Shown here in pieces: positions 6,805 through 50,094 of a DNA stretch of 64,000 nt (position 1 is its first letter; each line of letters starts with the position of its first letter). The notes beneath the pieces were generated by a model. The model made no database searches. It saw nothing but the letters and a program-made list of their open reading frames with translations, and was not told where the DNA came from. The DNA is taken from positions 1-64,000 of the IMG/VR virus record IMGVR_UViG_3300021091_000001. One strand, given 5' to 3'. This DNA comes from a virus. Lineage: Duplodnaviria; Caudoviricetes. The translations under genes and the position numbers were made by a program.

Positions 6805-8448
6805 TTAATCCTCTTTTGACATTTGATCATCTTGTATGATTACATTATACTGCTCTTCCAACAGATTTTCAACTAAACCAATCCATGTAGAATCGGATCT
6901 TTTTATATTTGGAGATGTTCTTCTTCCCTGTTGATTTTGTGGCCTAACTAAGTTGCCAACTCCTCTTCTTCTTGAGGGCAAGTTTCTTTGACCAGAGGAA
7001 GCTGAAGATTGTTTGTCTCCATCTTTTGTTACGTCTTTAGACTGCTGAGCTTTTGCTTGAGCGTCCATTTGTGCGGCAGCCATGTCCATCTGCATTTGTG
7101 ATTGAATGCCTTGGAATGTAGCCTCCAAATCTATATTTGGATCTTCGCCAAGTTTGATTCTTGCTTCGTCAATCGAAATAAGAGAGTTAACATATTTTTG
7201 TATTATATGTGTTTCTTTCTTAACTTGAGTGTCAACGTCAATCTCATTAAATTTGAAATAACATCTGTCTGAAACTTCCGATGTAATTGGATTAATAAGA
7301 GGATCAAACCCGCCTTCAAACAACAATTCATTAAGAATATTTACTCTTACCATCTCAGCAAATTGTTTTTGAAAATGCTTGATTTTATCGTAAAGAGCAG
7401 TGTCTAATCTTTCTGTTACAGATCTATTTCCACCATTCATGCTCATTCCCAAATGATGAGGAGAAACACCTAAACCAATAGCAACTCTTTCCTTAAAGTG
7501 ATCAAGATATGCACTTGCATCTAGTGCTTCATTTGCTGATCCGACGACTTCAACGTCATGTCTAAATGGAAGAATTAATCCGCCTTCTGCTCTGAGGTTT
7601 TCTATCTCAGCAGCTGCTTGATCAATTTCTTCTGGCTCAGCTGGTTGATCTGCTGTGCCAATTCTGTATTTATACAATGGAAAAAGTTCTCTGTGAACTA
7701 GATTTTGAATGTCTTCTTCCATCTGACGTAGAGCAATGACGTCATCTAAAACATTTGATAGAAATGGCGTACCAAAAGCTCTCCCTGGTTTTCTATCAAA
7801 GAAAAGATGTATTATTCTGTCAGCTGACCATACAGGATCCCTATCTGTAGGAGCATAGGTTAGAGGATCTGTTTGCTGTTGGTATGATTTAGGTCTATTG
7901 TGCTTATCGCGCAGAATTCTAGTTTGCTCTGTTGGAATTAAATAATATCCAACAACAGGAAAACCACCATTGATTCCATCAAGTTTTATTGGAAAATACT
8001 CTGACATATCTGCTCTTGCTTTTACGATAAAAACATTTGCAAATTTGAATAGCTGATCAGATAAATCAATAAGAAAATCTAGAAATGGTCTTTTCATTGC
8101 CATTTCCATGTAGTCTATTCTTTGATACAAATAAGCTACAGCCTCTGGATTTTCTCCAACAATCTGCCAACCTTCCTTCCAAAATAAGTCTTTGTATTTT
8201 GCTACAGCTTGTTTGACATATGAGTCTGTATCAACTGCTTGAATAATGCGATCAAAATCATATGGCGAAGGTTCAAAATTGCTTCTGCCAGTATAAAAAT
8301 AGTTTGTCCCTTTATAGCCTAGAGCAAGGGCAGCTATTCTCATGGCCTTACCAAGAGAGCTTATTCTTTCTGGCGGAAGTTGAGCTGCTACAAAATCAGC
8401 TTCACTAAGTTCTAGCCTTCTGAAAGGAAGGTATTGACGCAATGGCAT
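6805..8448 (-). CDS. Portal protein
   Basis: 547 aa; IIHLFFDRKPGRAFGTPFLSNVLDD and AIGLGVSPHHLG segments typical of portals; position in head module. Confidence 0.85.
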   Translation of the reverse strand: MPLRQYLPFRRLELSEADFVAAQLPPERISSLGKAMRIAALALGYKGTNYFYTGRSNFEPSPYDFDRIIQAVDTDSYVKQAVAKYKDLFWKEGWQIVGENPEAVAYLYQRIDYMEMAMKRPFLDFLIDLSDQLFKFANVFIVKARADMSEYFPIKLDGINGGFPVVGYYLIPTEQTRILRDKHNRPKSYQQQTDPLTYAPTDRDPVWSADRIIHLFFDRKPGRAFGTPFLSNVLDDVIALRQMEEDIQNLVHRELFPLYKYRIGTADQPAEPEEIDQAAAEIENLRAEGGLILPFRHDVEVVGSANEALDASAYLDHFKERVAIGLGVSPHHLGMSMNGGNRSVTERLDTALYDKIKHFQKQFAEMVRVNILNELLFEGGFDPLINPITSEVSDRCYFKFNEIDVDTQVKKETHIIQKYVNSLISIDEARIKLGEDPNIDLEATFQGIQSQMQMDMAAAQMDAQAKAQQSKDVTKDGDKQSSASSGQRNLPSRRRGVGNLVRPQNQQGRRTSPNIKRSDSTWIGLVENLLEEQYNVIIQDDQMSKED

Positions 8449-8875: not shown

Positions 8876-10985
8876 TTAGTTATTTAACTGGGATTCTAAG
8901 ACTTCTATTCTAGCACATAATTCTTGTATAGACCTTACAGAAAGAGCAACTATATCGACGTATCTATACATAGTTGGATACCATTCGGATATGTCATACG
9001 CACCGCCTGGTTGATCTGGTTTTATTTTTGTATTTTTTGGATGGTAATCAACAAGATCTTTACTAACTTCTTCTACTTCTTCTACTACAAAACCATATGA
9101 TCTAGATAAAGATTGGATATCTAGAGCTTGTTGTGTCCATCTTTTTCCAGTATTAGGATCTATAACCCAAAGCTCTCCAGTCTCTGGATCTGGATCACCT
9201 ATCTTAGCTCTATATTTTCTTGGTCTTAGTTTTTTGACTATATCTAATCCACTAACAATGTCTTCAATATTATCTTTCAATTCTCTTCTAGAAGTAATTT
9301 GAACAAGCCTGTATACATTTTGGCCTTGAATGAAATCTGTTCTTAAATTTGGAGTTGTAGAAGTAACTTGTGGCACATTTTGGGACCATCTATAAGTGAA
9401 ACCATTTTCAACTGTAACGTTCCTTGCTGTCATTGCTCCAGTAACAGACATATTTGCTCCAACATTAAGCGTACCATCGATTGTCGCCGTACCAGTTGAA
9501 GTTAGATTGCCCAACATATTAACACGAAATGGTGCGTTACTAAACGTTTGGTCACCTAAATAAATACCACTTGAATCAGCTTTAAATACACTATTACCAG
9601 AACCAATTAATACTGATCCATGGAATGTTCCTGTTGCTCCTTGTAAAGAACCGTTGAAATACTGCAGATCCATCGGAATTAAGTGCGACTGTGTTTACTC
9701 CACCAGTGTTATATATTTTTATACCAGTAGAATCTATTGAAAGGCGAGCACCTGAAGTGCCAGTATTAACATTTACGCTATTGAGATTAATTGTTCCAGT
9801 TGTAATTACTCCACCTGATATTGTGGTTACACCTGTTCCACCTAAATTATTTTTTACATCACCAGGAGAAACTTTTCCATTAGCAGTATTTTGCGCTGTA
9901 TCAATTGAACTATTAACTTGAGATGCAGTACGTGATCCTATTGTTACTGTTCCATCAATGACTAATTCATTTGTAGTTGCATTCCAATATAATTTATTTT
10001 TTAAAGAAAAATTTCCAGAAGAATCTACATAAAATGCTGTGTCTGCATTAGCGTAATTTCCAGTTCCTATATATATCTTATTAGTTCCGGCATTAATTCC
10101 TGCTATTGTTCCACCAGTTTGTGTTGCATTTGTTATGACTTGACCTGTTGTGGTTAAATTTGCGCCATCCCATTGAATGAATTTTGTTCCAGTTCCAGCA
10201 AAGAAGTTTCCGGTATTTGAAACTCTAAATGGAGCAGTTGCTTTATTCGCTACAGCAGCTCCCAGCCACATGTTTCCATCGATATCAACATGAAAAGAAC
10301 TTGTGTCATCTCCACCAATATCCAATTGAGATCTTATTGTTAACTGATTAAATTCAGCGTTTCCAACACCATCTATCTTCCACCCTTCAGATCCAGTAGA
10401 ATAATTTGAAGACTTTATGATAGATGTTGCTCCAGCTAATGTAATTGTATGTGCACCTATTGTTCCTGAAGTTATTTTAGATGCTGTAAGATTATTTATA
10501 TATTGATCTTGAATCAATGGAGTATCGCCAGAACCAACCAACGGATAAACCCAAGCCCCCCTTGTTCCTGCGGTACTTACTGTTCTTACGGTTCCCCAAT
10601 ATGCTGTATTGACAGACGAAGTTGAGTTTTCAACAGACACGGTAAAAACATTAGCTTTTGCTGTACCAGAAATTAGGTCTCCATTTGTTGCGGTTTTTTG
10701 GTTGACCAAAGTTCCTGTACCGGCAGAGTTATCATAGAGTCTATACTCAAAGTAATCTAGATCTATATCATTAACTGGATCAAATGCAAACATGACTGTT
10801 TCAAAGTTTGCGGCCAAAGTCAATCCAGTAATATTAGACGGATTTCCAACTGCAGATGGAGTCTTGACTCTAATTGCTTCTGGTAATTCATCTAATGCTG
10901 AAATTTCTACATTCTTTGGTTTGAGCGTAAATAAATAGTTGGAATCTGGGTTTAGTCCGCTAATTGTCTTTTTGATCTTTGCCAT
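8876..10985 (-). CDS. Tail fibre/spike with C-terminal S74 intramolecular chaperone; +1 frameshift near 9653
   Basis: ORFs 9594..10985 and 8876..9673 join as ...DGSAVF(Q or N)GSLQGATG...; ITASKITSGTI fibre motifs; SRRELKDNIEDI...GFVVEEVEEV...SVRSIQEL S74 signature. Confidence 0.8.
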
Positions 10986-41377: not shown

Positions 41378-41976
41378 CGAGTATCCTGGATAAGACCAAG
41401 AACATGGCACTTATAACCATGTAACGATGCGGGTTATGTCCCGTAAGTTGTCGTGTGATTAAGATTGGCCTCACCGATCTTAGTCTACCTGTGAGGCAGG
41501 TAGTCCAGGGGAAAGTCTAAGTTGTTAGTCATCTCACAAATAGCATGAGTGTCTGGGGAGATCCCAGAACAGCTGTCCTTCAGCCGATGAAACACTATTT
41601 GTAAAAACTAACTGCAATACACAACTAGCTAATAGCCTGTAGCTTTGACTTGTGTATAAGATTTTGGCTTATACGGTAGATAACTGTAAACCCGTAATAT
41701 AGGAAACTATATTAATCCGATAATACATACGAGGGTTCTTACAAGTAGTATATATTGTCCAGTTAGATCTTTTTGTAGAAGATTGCGTGTATAACGCGTC
41801 TTAAACGACACTGTGGTGTGCCCTATAATACGTCCATGGTCGCAAGACGTTAAAATGCGTAACCTTGGCCTTTGGTACGAGGGTGACATTAGTGTCAGTG
41901 TCTGGTATATGCACAAACAGCGTCGTATCAATATACCATTAAGATCTTTTTAAAAAGTTCATACAAAGGAGAAAAC

Positions 41977-46025: not shown

Positions 46026-46859
46026 ATGCGCATACTTAAAACATTAATTATATCATTAATTATAATAACTTCATTAACATTTGCCAGTTCTGCCAATGCT
46101 TCAGCTTGGGAGTATGTCACCTTCAGAATGGGTGCACCCGCTAGCTACTGGAAAGATGTAGCTCAATGTCAGGCTGGCAACAAAAATCAGGTCAACTGGA
46201 AACAGCTTGGTATACAATCTGGAGGACTTCAGATTCATACCAATTCTTCTTTCGGTCAACCCGATATGGGCATATGGGAGCAATATGGTGGTGAGCAATT
46301 TGCGCCATCTCCAGATAAAGCATCTGTGGATCAGCAGATTATTATTGCCAACCGTATTGCTATCACAGGCTTCAAAACCAAACAAATTAACAGCTTTACC
46401 ATTAGGCCATTAAGAGATGTTTATATTAAACATCCTCTTGGTTTTAATCATTGGTCATGTATTGCAACTAGTGAGCTTGATTCATATTCCAAAATTGAAT
46501 ACACTGTAAGAATATCTACTGATCCAACTTTCTCATGTCCTAAATATGAGAACTTGTTCAGAAAATATGGTTTACCACCCAAGGTATTTTCCTATATTGC
46601 TTACAGAGAATCACGTTGCAATACTAATGCTGTTAACGCTAGGTGGAAAGATGGTAAACTCATCTGGACATTAAATAATAACAAAACTTATGATTCTGGG
46701 TTGTTACAAATCAATTCATCTTGGATTGGAACACTCAAGAGAGAGTTTGGTTATTCTTCATCTGATTTATTTAAAGCAGATGTTAATGCCCGATTTGCCA
46801 GCTGGATACTTAACAATACATCAGGTAGATTGCGTAACTGGTCTCTGTACGCAAAATAG
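46026..46859 (+). CDS. Secreted protein with Rpf-like domain plus SLT lytic-transglycosylase domain
   Basis: Signal peptide; WKDVAQCQAG..GGLQI..WEQYGGEQFAPSPDKASVDQQIIIA (Rpf-like); IAYRESRCN..DSGLLQIN (SLT); AAGGAG RBS. Confidence 0.8.
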   Translation: MRILKTLIISLIIITSLTFASSANASAWEYVTFRMGAPASYWKDVAQCQAGNKNQVNWKQLGIQSGGLQIHTNSSFGQPDMGIWEQYGGEQFAPSPDKASVDQQIIIANRIAITGFKTKQINSFTIRPLRDVYIKHPLGFNHWSCIATSELDSYSKIEYTVRISTDPTFSCPKYENLFRKYGLPPKVFSYIAYRESRCNTNAVNARWKDGKLIWTLNNNKTYDSGLLQINSSWIGTLKREFGYSSSDLFKADVNARFASWILNNTSGRLRNWSLYAK

Positions 46860-47252: not shown

Positions 47253-47667
47253 CCTAAAGACCAATTATTATTGCGTTATCGTAATTTCTTTGAAGTTCAT
47301 ATCTTACTTCGTCTCGTTATTAAACTATATTCGATGCGCTGTAAGTTACAGGGATGGCCGTAAGCCCTGGTAAAATGAACGGACGGAGTTTGCATGTTCT
47401 CTGCACAAAAACATGCACATCATGCACACGGTTTTTCTATTTGTAAACTTTCTTTTTTGTTCATACAGAAAAGAAGGGAATAGTCACATTTATTAGGGAG
47501 AAGCTGATGCCTTTTAAATCTGTTGTTGATATCGTCATATTTTCAACTATATGTTTTTTTCTTTTGTCTTGGTATGTTATCAACGCCAGCGATTACAAAA
47601 AGAAAAAGAAAAATAAACCTTAGTTGTTTATACAAAATATTGATCCATCTACCTACATAGGAGAATC

Positions 47668-48117
47668 ATGTTTGCTTTCGCTATTATGCTAGCTGTTGCT
47701 TCAACTATTGTAGAAATGATGTTTGCTGCTAATTTTCCGACTTGGCGTCGCCTTGCTTATGAATTCAAATGGTTTAATATGATTATTTCAATCATGTTGT
47801 CATTTCTCATTGGCTTGGCGTTCGGTGCTGCTGGTTTGATTGCCATGACTGCAGGCTTGATTTCTACAGTGTTATCAATTCCAGGTTATGCTTTCTTGCA
47901 CTGGAATTGTGACACTCCTAAAGCTCAAACTCTTGGCACCACTAGAACTAATTATATAAAGACCAAGACTAAAACTAAATTTGCTAAAGGCAAAGAACTT
48001 GCTTCTGACTTGGGAAAGGTTGCTTACGCTACTGGAAAAGTTATTACTGCTCCTATTTGGATTCCACGTAAAGCATCCCACAAGTACAAAGCATTTAAAG
48101 CTAGGTATAATTCATAA
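47668..48117 (+). CDS. Membrane protein
   Basis: AGGAG RBS; three hydrophobic helices, basic C-terminus. Confidence 0.65.
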   Translation: MFAFAIMLAVASTIVEMMFAANFPTWRRLAYEFKWFNMIISIMLSFLIGLAFGAAGLIAMTAGLISTVLSIPGYAFLHWNCDTPKAQTLGTTRTNYIKTKTKTKFAKGKELASDLGKVAYATGKVITAPIWIPRKASHKYKAFKARYNS

Positions 48118-48149: not shown

Positions 48150-48908
48150 ATGATTGGCTTGTCCACACAATCAACACTCGATGACGCTTCTATTCGTAGA
48201 ATTATTGCTTCCTATAATAAGGTATACGATGCTCGCGTTGCAATTGAAGCAATTGCAGCCAATGGAGAATCAAATTCCTACATTGATCGTATTCTTGAAG
48301 TTACAGAATCCGTTGACCTTATTGTCAAGCGACCTTTGTCTAATCGCGTAACAAAATTTATTGTTGGCAAATGGTCAATGTCACAAATCGGTGTTGGACC
48401 TGTATTTACTGCAGGTCTAATGTCTTACATTGATGTCACTAAAGCCAAGACAGCTACATCAGTCTGGCGTTATGCTGGATTTGATCCTACATTTAATTCA
48501 TCTACTCGCATGTCATATAACGGCGATCTTAAAAATATTTGTTTAAAGATTGGTCATAGTTTTTCTCGAAACGTTGATAAGAAAAATGCTTTTTATGGCA
48601 AACTTTATTTGCAGGATAAAATTCGTCGTGTTCGCAACAATGAAAATGGCGAATATGCAGAACACGCATATGAAACACTTATCAATGTAAATTCGAAGAA
48701 TAAGGATACTATTGCTATTCTACAATCTGGTAAGTTGCCTGATGAACAAATTGAACAACAAGCTCGTAGATTTGCAGTAAAAATTTTTCTTAGTCATTAT
48801 CACACAATAGCATATCAGGAACATTACGGAACTGCTCCTTATCGTCCTAACTCTATCACTATTGATGGAATTGAACAACATATTGAAATTCCCAACAATC
48901 CATTCTAA
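48150..48908 (+). CDS. IS110/Nop-domain protein lacking the RuvC-like domain (TasA-like)
   Basis: GKWSMSQIGVGPVFTAGLMSYIDV, VWRYAGFDP, YNGDLKNICLKIGHSF, FYGKLY, QARRFAVKIFLSHYH; only a short helical N-terminus. Confidence 0.72.
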   Translation: MIGLSTQSTLDDASIRRIIASYNKVYDARVAIEAIAANGESNSYIDRILEVTESVDLIVKRPLSNRVTKFIVGKWSMSQIGVGPVFTAGLMSYIDVTKAKTATSVWRYAGFDPTFNSSTRMSYNGDLKNICLKIGHSFSRNVDKKNAFYGKLYLQDKIRRVRNNENGEYAEHAYETLINVNSKNKDTIAILQSGKLPDEQIEQQARRFAVKIFLSHYHTIAYQEHYGTAPYRPNSITIDGIEQHIEIPNNPF

Positions 48909-48916
48909 GGAGTTTT

Positions 48917-49501
48917 ATGTTTAATCACATTACAACAATTAGTCCAGAGCGAGTTGCTAAGGCCATCAAATACTTTGATAATAACATCGAACCACTCCTT
49001 GGTACAGATGTTTCTAGCTATGCTCCTGGACGTCGTCGTATATGGTTTCCTTACGAAGCTCCTTTGAGCAATAATCGTACCTTTGAGCTTGCTCTTCCTG
49101 ACCAAAAGATTTGGGCATTTGTCAAAAACATTTGTGCATCTTTTGGTTGGGAGCCTGAGCTTGCTCTTATCTCTAAAGGTGGAGAAATTTCTGCACACCG
49201 AGATGCAGCTTATGCTGATTTCCGATCTATCGGAATCAATCTTGGTTCTGTCACTTGGTGTTATGAAAGAATTTATCCAGCATTTGGATGGGCTGAGCCG
49301 TCCAAATGCATCGATCCTTCCGAGATAACTAAGGTACCCATGACTGGTGGAGAAGTCTTTGAGTTCAATTGTAAAAATCCACATTGGACTGAGGACGTTG
49401 ATCCTAACCGTTGGGCTATTAACGCTTGGAGAATTTCTGCTAAGAAACGAATTGAATTTACCGATTTTCTCAAATCGTTGACTGTTCATACAAAAGAATG
49501 A
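48917..49501 (+). CDS. 2OG-Fe(II) oxygenase (AlkB-like fold)
   Basis: GRRRIWF, ISAHRDA (HxD), SINLG-like GINLGS, PHWT and RWAINAW motifs. Confidence 0.7.
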   Translation: MFNHITTISPERVAKAIKYFDNNIEPLLGTDVSSYAPGRRRIWFPYEAPLSNNRTFELALPDQKIWAFVKNICASFGWEPELALISKGGEISAHRDAAYADFRSIGINLGSVTWCYERIYPAFGWAEPSKCIDPSEITKVPMTGGEVFEFNCKNPHWTEDVDPNRWAINAWRISAKKRIEFTDFLKSLTVHTKE

Positions 49502-49528: not shown

Positions 49529-49933
49529 ATGACTAAAGAAAGTACTTTGCCCACCGACTGGAAGAACTGCTATCTTGTTTTTCATGGAGCAGCAGATGAG
49601 AATGGCTATGGCGATTCTCTCTATGCTCGTTCTCTTCAAGGTTTTAACCGCAAGAAAAATGGAAACACAAATGGCCCAGATTTTTATTCCATCCGTTCTT
49701 CTAGCTATGGAATCAAAGTTCCTACCGCAGCAGTAGGTTGGGCTATTGTTCGCATGACCAGTAGCACTGTCAAAACTCTTGTTATAGGTGAGATTCCTCA
49801 GCCCATGACTAAGGTTGTTCAAACTCTTTCTGATGGACGTGCTATTTATATGCGTCGTTCTGAGGCGAACATGTGGTTCACGATTACTGTTGAAAACGTT
49901 CATGCTAAGATTCCTCTTCACGTGGAATCTTAA
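49529..49933 (+). CDS. Hypothetical protein
   Basis: AAGGA RBS, 134 aa. Confidence 0.6.
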   Translation: MTKESTLPTDWKNCYLVFHGAADENGYGDSLYARSLQGFNRKKNGNTNGPDFYSIRSSSYGIKVPTAAVGWAIVRMTSSTVKTLVIGEIPQPMTKVVQTLSDGRAIYMRRSEANMWFTITVENVHAKIPLHVES

Positions 49934-50094
49934 TAAGATCTTTGGAGTTAAATGAATGTAGGTTGTGGTGAACTTACTCCGTTGTCACCATTCCAAAGAA
50001 GGTAAGTCATATGCCTTCCTTTCGCTCAGCGCCAGCCTGAGTCAAATATGACAGCTGGCATTTAAATTATATTTATCCTATTAAGGAGGATAAT

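Follow-up and report, generated by a model that had tools for sequence, protein, structure and literature searches.

What is a Tas protein kept for in a phage genome that carries no TIGR array? TIGR-Tas systems are two years old, and the sole arrayless Tas branch that we found in the literature is a compact phage TasR lacking the coiled coil (Xu et al. 2026, bioRxiv 10.64898/2026.09.09.750476), for which the authors ask whether the guides come from an alternative source or whether they have escaped detection. The same question is raised by a gene, here called tasA, in the window analysed in this study. This window covers the opening 64 kb of a phage genome that is complete at 202,043 bp, is bounded by direct terminal repeats and was recovered from lake-water metagenomes. 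We found no description in the literature of an arrayless TasA clade nested in a dual-repeat clade with correlated loss of the Tyr/His dyad, as reported here, and the case is clean and polarised, combining a complete genome, syntenic array-bearing sisters and a single loss event. The array and the histidine that catalyses guide maturation went together, yet strong purifying selection persists, and a pair of closely related proteins, of which just one has guides, allows a direct test of the question. The case hints at competition between phages over guide RNAs or at a new Nop-domain RNP; if true, a role as decoy or hijacker, or as the partner of a conserved RNA that we call element A, would be the first function to be described for an arrayless Tas protein.

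Identity and predicted fold of the protein

The tasA open reading frame (48150-48908, plus strand) encodes 252 aa, or 249 aa when read from a TTG at position 48159. An AGGAG sequence directly abuts the ATG at 48150, and the TTG lies 9 nt past it; the TTG is likely the true start, because it is better spaced from the AGGAG and matches the 249-aa start of the relatives. Database searches returned 197 homologues at an E value of 0.001 or better, mostly 245 to 300 aa long and often located on phage contigs of 100 to 200 kb. Pfam yielded only a sub-threshold match to the IS110 C-terminal domain (PF02371, E value of 0.004, residues 79 to 125), and the PHROGs family into which the protein falls is labelled "transposase" (E value of 3.5e-17). 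Against solved structures, the single sequence matched SpTasH (4e-8) and TaTasR (9MTY; 5e-4), and an hmmsearch profile built from 30 homologues matched TasR 9MTY at 1e-17 over nearly the full length and SpTasH at 5e-15.

The AlphaFold (AF2) model of the protein (pLDDT of 89, pTM of 0.86) shows a coiled-coil hairpin of two helices, followed by a helical core and, at the C-terminus, a beta-hairpin. The preliminary description of this locus had proposed a coiled-coil N-terminus followed by a GxGP...W.YAG...KIFLSH domain, and both parts were borne out: the predicted hairpin is formed by helices 12-38 and 43-67 (block pLDDT of 84 to 92) and aligns to the coiled-coil domain of TasH and TasR, and the motifs are present as GVGPV (residues 81 to 85), WRYAG (106 to 110) and KIFLSH (211 to 216). 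In a Foldseek search of the PDB, the top 11 matches were all TasH or TasR (E values for all TasH and TasR chains of 6e-7 to 4e-4), followed by IS621 and ISCro4. An exhaustive structural search with VIA-align gave the same order, with Z scores of 18.1 for TasH (216 residues aligned), 16.7 for TasR (193 residues), 12.8 for ISCro4, 6.4 for Nop5 and 6.2 for Prp31. The TasA-like identity first proposed is thus borne out by both sequence and fold.

The best matches in both sequence and structure, SpTasH (Salicola phage CGphi29; 9W03/9W04/21KL) and TaTasR (9MTY), share the coiled coil, the Nop domain and the C-terminal beta-hairpin with the window protein; unlike it, they possess an HNH or RuvC nuclease domain and have arrays alongside. 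No nuclease domain (RuvC or HNH) was detected in the window protein by Pfam, its model begins at the coiled coil, and its alignment starts only at residue 66 of TasH and residue 110 of TasR, as expected from the earlier reading of a nuclease-less protein. Because profile and fold match TasH and TasR and the nuclease domain is absent, the window protein is a TasA as defined by Faure et al. 2025 (PMC12045711). Conservation of its C-terminal IPNNPF tail (window 48890-48905) extends over the arrayless clade described below and the nearest sister clade and stops short of more distant TasA proteins.

Two other groups of proteins share the fold. The IS110/IS621 bridge-RNA recombinases (8WT6, 9T56) have the same RNA-binding domain, with 178 residues aligned at the Z score given above for ISCro4 and the weak PF02371 match; unlike these, the window gene lacks the DEDD RuvC-like domain of IS110 (PF01548, absent by Pfam and from the AF2 model), element ends and a bridge RNA. 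Since tasA is present as a single copy in the genome and is found at one and the same syntenic position in more than 12 related phages, it is no insertion sequence, which also agrees with the preliminary description. Archaeal Nop5 (1NT2) and eukaryotic Prp31 (2OZB) show a distant Nop fold over the whole core (137 and 147 residues aligned, respectively) with undetectable sequence similarity to the window protein, which, unlike them, has no known L7Ae/15.5K partner or K-turn RNA, the fibrillarin-binding N-terminal domain of Nop5/56/58 being absent from its model.

Genomic context of tasA

The genome is that of a tailed phage: its minus strand encodes major head, portal and terminase proteins between 2 and 15 kb. 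A search for cultured relatives returned no megablast matches and, by tblastn, SpTasH only; a comparison with MAG contigs for the host gave three matches, all marginal. The gene tasA sits within a plus-strand block of small early/middle genes, in the order transglycosylase, 114-aa protein, 38-aa and 149-aa membrane proteins, tasA, 194-aa, 134-aa and 857-aa proteins (Table 1). In two arrayless relatives, the gene immediately 5' of tasA belongs to the WhiB family (L089, 9719-9958; L091, 9752-9991), which, together with the Rpf-like transglycosylase of the window (46026-46859), suggests actinobacterial hosts.

Table 1. Features around tasA (coordinates in the window)
Feature	Coordinates	Strand	Basis
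38-aa small membrane ORF, heads the operon; called at 38-45 aa in relatives	47509..47625	+	
149-aa membrane protein gene, directly upstream of tasA	47668..48117	+	synteny
tasA, solo Nop-domain coiled-coil Tas protein of an arrayless, dyad-less lineage	48150..48908	+	sequence, fold, tree
194-aa gene, 8 nt downstream of tasA, kept in most relatives	48917..49501	+	
134-aa gene, in some relatives	49529..49933	+	
Element A, conserved 77-nt double-pseudoknot RNA	49995-50069	+	covariance model, compensatory pairs
tRNA-like RNA with 7-bp acceptor stem, T-arm and encoded (A)CCA	50419..50537	+	
857-aa gene, syntenic landmark	51234..53807	+	

Among the arrayless phages, the 149-aa membrane gene is the immediate 5' neighbour of tasA, as it is in three out of four sister phages examined; the exception, L007, has it behind the array. 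The Atlas offered no functional lead for this protein, and a weak 2OG-Fe(II) oxygenase-like signal in the 194-aa protein was the sole functional lead from that source. The 857-aa protein had no matches in the phage collection; its homologue lies 60 to 90 nt downstream of where the TIGR array stops in two of the sisters (L009, L011). A conserved promoter-like motif precedes the 38-aa ORF: the sequence ATACA(A/G)AAAGAAGGGA, following a T-run, occurs at window positions 47455-47475 and 51190-51206, in front of both the tasA operon and the 857-aa gene, and is conserved in all related phages.

Absence of an array and origin of the lineage

No guide array had been noticed in the flanking DNA by the preliminary description, and none was found here in the 64-kb window (TRF) or in the whole 202-kb genome, either by autocorrelation (periods of 24 to 89) or by local clustering of 6- to 8-mers. 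The same scans were run on 80 related viral loci and, as a positive control, detect the arrays in L006-L081. The repeats encountered elsewhere in the genome were rejected as arrays, being either coding tandems (at 4.2-4.8, 58, 84.4-85, 88.6-89 and 90.9-91.4 kb) or a 12-nt tandem. Repeat units of the sister type did not occur above chance in this genome, with 3 observed against a shuffled expectation of 4.7. The genome is thus without a TIGR array, both in the window and in its complete 202 kb, and the suggestion that guides lie beyond the window is not supported by these scans.

Relatives at 45% identity or below mostly carry 36- to 38-nt dual-repeat TIGR arrays beside tas, and among the 71 distinct relatives included in the tree, four or more array units were found there in 61. 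The nearest array bearers, L006-L011, have 37- to 38-nt arrays that are composed of an edge repeat AATGAATCA, a loop repeat AnTTGTAACA and 9-nt spacers and that lie between tasA and the 857-aa homologue; their 37-nt tigRNA would read edge AAUCA, 9-nt spacer, loop ACUUGUAACA, 9-nt spacer and AAAUG. The TasA proteins of these sisters are dual-repeat proteins of the FpTasA type (PMC12045711), with the same coiled-coil hairpin and Nop core, no nuclease, 41 to 45% identity to the window protein, invariant core motifs, and the same position and neighbours (the 149-aa membrane gene and the 857-aa gene).

We built a maximum-likelihood tree of 71 different Tas proteins with SpTasH as the root; in it, the window protein groups with L082-L085, L002-L004 and L012 in one clade (SH-aLRT of 99). 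The eight arrayless entries form this single clade, every member of which is without an array; it is nested inside array-bearing TasA as the sister of L006-L011, and its reading frames are intact at amino-acid identities as low as 49%. On four additional contigs belonging to the clade, no array was present within 10 kb on each side of the gene. The arrayless and sister genomes are syntenic and belong to one group of phages of approximately 200 kb. Going by tree and synteny, the tasA lineage descends from a dual-repeat TIGR-TasA system whose array was lost in a single event. The arrayless TasR branch of Xu et al. resembles the window TasA in being a Tas protein in phage genomes with no detectable array; it differs in that it lacks the coiled-coil dimerisation domain and occurs in genomes without intergenic space, whereas the window TasA has kept its coiled coil, falls within the dual-repeat clade and has plenty of non-coding DNA close by.

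Residues lost with the array and selection on the protein

The loss was not confined to the array. SpTasH matures its guides with the catalytic residues Y289 and H296 (PMC13421893), and the window protein has N234 and I241 in the corresponding columns. The processing histidine is present in 60 of 60 array bearers versus 0 of 16 arrayless proteins, and a tyrosine or phenylalanine occupies the tyrosine column in 60 of 60 versus 1 of 16. In addition, the arrayless clade has lost (i) a second histidine beside the dyad; (ii) the W and the RPW motif of the loop after WRYAG, both near-invariant in array bearers, the loop itself being shorter in the window protein; and (iii) an N-terminal extension of approximately 35 aa. 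Going by the domain order given in bioRxiv 10.64898/2026.09.09.750476, the loop that follows WRYAG probably corresponds to the wedge loop, and its alteration could mean either that the protein no longer opens DNA or that it uses no guides. The earlier view of the protein as TasA-like stood, and what it had missed is the derived lineage's loss of array and processing residues.

These losses are accompanied by strong conservation of the remainder of the protein. Within the arrayless clade, dN/dS is 0.09 to 0.14 for unsaturated pairs, and approximately 45 core positions are invariant across both clades, including GIGPV, WRYAG and RRFAVKIFLSH. Judged from these substitution patterns, the arrayless TasA is a functional, remodelled protein under strong purifying selection and no decayed fragment. 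That it might be a decayed transposase fragment had been named among the outcomes fatal to the first interpretation, and this is contradicted by the low dN/dS (approximately 0.1) and the intact frames.

A possible source of RNA for TasA

Taken together, we consider it somewhat more probable than the contrary that the window protein is a derived, arrayless TasA, functional and with its RNA binding retained. The evolutionary course started from an ancestral dual-repeat TIGR-TasA, still present at the same position in sister lake phages, and one branch then lost the array, the Tyr/His dyad, the W/RPW loop residues and the N-terminal extension, while the Nop core and the coiled coil were retained under strong purifying selection. 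The conserved motifs for RNA binding point to a protein that may still bind box C/D-type RNA as a dimer, and the missing dyad points to one that is presumably unable to make guides itself. The predicted dimer would make no guides from a cis array and therefore would have to work with RNA arriving ready-made.

Two candidates for such RNA can be put forward. Our leading guess is that TasA loads the mature tigRNAs of co-infecting, array-bearing relatives, in which case it would hijack their guides or act as a decoy in competition between phages; our second guess is that it partners a non-array RNA of the phage, such as element A. That a lineage without array and processing site was kept for a new job of either kind, as an anti-TIGR decoy/hijacker or as an element A partner, is proposed only tentatively, and the mechanism of guides supplied in trans, or of a decoy, is doubtful when taken by itself. 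Against the trans-guide idea, the spacers of 34 tigRNA units from sister-phage arrays have no convincing targets in this genome: they gave 31 matches at three or fewer mismatches, where shuffled spacers gave 14 to 22, and no match was exact, so that targeting of this phage by the sister arrays was rejected.

Element A and neighbouring RNAs

The alternative in which TasA partners element A envisages a regulatory or structural RNP, perhaps with an RNA matured via the adjacent tRNA-like element, and no programmable targeting; we regard it as unlikely, though the RNA itself is real. The preliminary description had pointed to a structured RNA at 49940-50060 as a possible guide, and this proved to be right as to the structure and wrong as to the guide. 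Element A folds into two hairpins whose loops pair with the 3' tail, giving a double pseudoknot of 21 pairs, in which 98.6% of the cells are paired, compared with 23 to 38% in slid controls; six pairs show compensatory changes, a level reached in 0 of 500 shuffles. It is present in eight distinct arrayless genomes (covariance-model E values of 1e-13 to 1e-23), always between tasA and the 857-aa gene, and was absent from the four array-bearing sister genomes under the covariance model. In these four genomes the array fills the interval that holds element A in most arrayless genomes, and within IMG/VR element A occurs only in this phage group. A partnership is further favoured by the tRNA-like RNA, which follows element A directly in L004 (about 8073-8170) and L089 (about 10839-10935) and would give it a defined 3' end.

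The co-occurrence of element A with arrayless TasA, however, amounts to one evolutionary event on one branch and hence is weak evidence, and the candidate is weakened by L012-L014, which have tasA and no element A within 6 kb under the same covariance model. In the window, two genes separate element A from tasA. Furthermore, element A has no variable, spacer-like segments and no UG/HCA box pairs in the tigRNA topology, and therefore is no TIGR-type guide. A hairpin at 49940-49998 combined with a 19-nt spacing of "CA" boxes (49990-50053) was considered as a degenerate unit and rejected, the boxes being unconserved in the homologous elements of other genomes.

In the tRNA-like RNA, a long central helix replaces the D and anticodon arms, and compensatory changes are seen between genomes. 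ARAGORN and Rfam made no call on it, and Rfam held no family for any of the nearby RNAs, element A included. Two further stretches had been named as possible structured guide RNAs. The first, at 47340-47430, was rejected: it lies in an insertion that is specific to this lineage and absent from 95%-identical relatives, and it folds no better than shuffled sequences (z of -1.4). The insertion (window 47262-47420) measures approximately 120 to 160 nt relative to L083 and L084, which carry just a terminator hairpin at this place. The second, at 41380-41940, belongs to a non-coding stretch of approximately 750 nt (window 41225-41976) without a plus-strand ORF; a tRNA-like piece was indeed found in it, as a T-arm-like GCGGTTCGATTCTGC, and a search for repeats was negative, leaving the guide proposal without support. 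The same gap in L090 (3854-4312) and L091 (3707-4312) contains a T-arm, an acceptor 3' strand and CCA, so that the stretch constitutes a second cluster of tRNA-like RNAs.

Cryptic guides and guide-free function

It is also conceivable, although in our judgement distinctly unlikely, that TasA is an ordinary RNA-guided repressor with cryptic guides in cis, which would amount to one or a few units, be dispersed or intragenic, carry diverged boxes and be matured by host RNase as in stem-loop TIGR. The stem-loop clades lack the Y/H dyad as well, and the positions of their guides are flexible and even intragenic (bioRxiv 10.64898/2026.09.09.750476); moreover, TIGRFinder reports arrays at only 6,685 of 20,096 tas loci. 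The arrayless clade, however, is nested in dual-repeat TasA and lies outside the stem-loop clades, and the searches for such guides in this genome speak against them. A screen for hairpin-enclosed dual spacers with sister-type boxes returned slightly more matches than Markov shuffles (13 versus 5 at stems of at least 7 bp), but none of these were near tasA and they formed no series or cluster. Recurrent bipartite motifs with variable 9-nt cores were, genome-wide, limited to early terminator-promoter cassettes. In ten arrayless genomes, the interval from tasA to the 857-aa gene contained no relics of edge or loop repeats, and a guide embedded in tasA itself was rejected, there being no window of suppressed synonymous change in the gene.

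Finally, a guide-free DNA- or protein-binding factor, built from the coiled-coil dimer and the IPNNPF tail, or else a decaying relic, could account for the combined loss of dyad, wedge-type loop residues and N-terminal extension and, in the former case, for the conservation of the IPNNPF C-terminus within the phage group; this is very unlikely, because a relic is ruled out by the low dN/dS and by frames that are intact across the clade, and the invariance of the Nop core would be unexpected had RNA binding been given up.

Other repeated elements of the genome

Outside the window, a 12-nt tandem in perfect phase with approximately 18 copies (GGTGGGAAGTAT / GGTGGGAAGAAA) is located at G000:C1:199870-200090 and adjoins the start of a minus-strand gene. 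Within the window, five cassettes, each consisting of a GC-rich terminator hairpin, TTTTCTCTTTATGGG, approximately 9 nt and AGATCCC, are distributed over positions 28377-35440, where they sit upstream of plus-strand genes in a GC-rich block at 28-36 kb and look like one promoter class.
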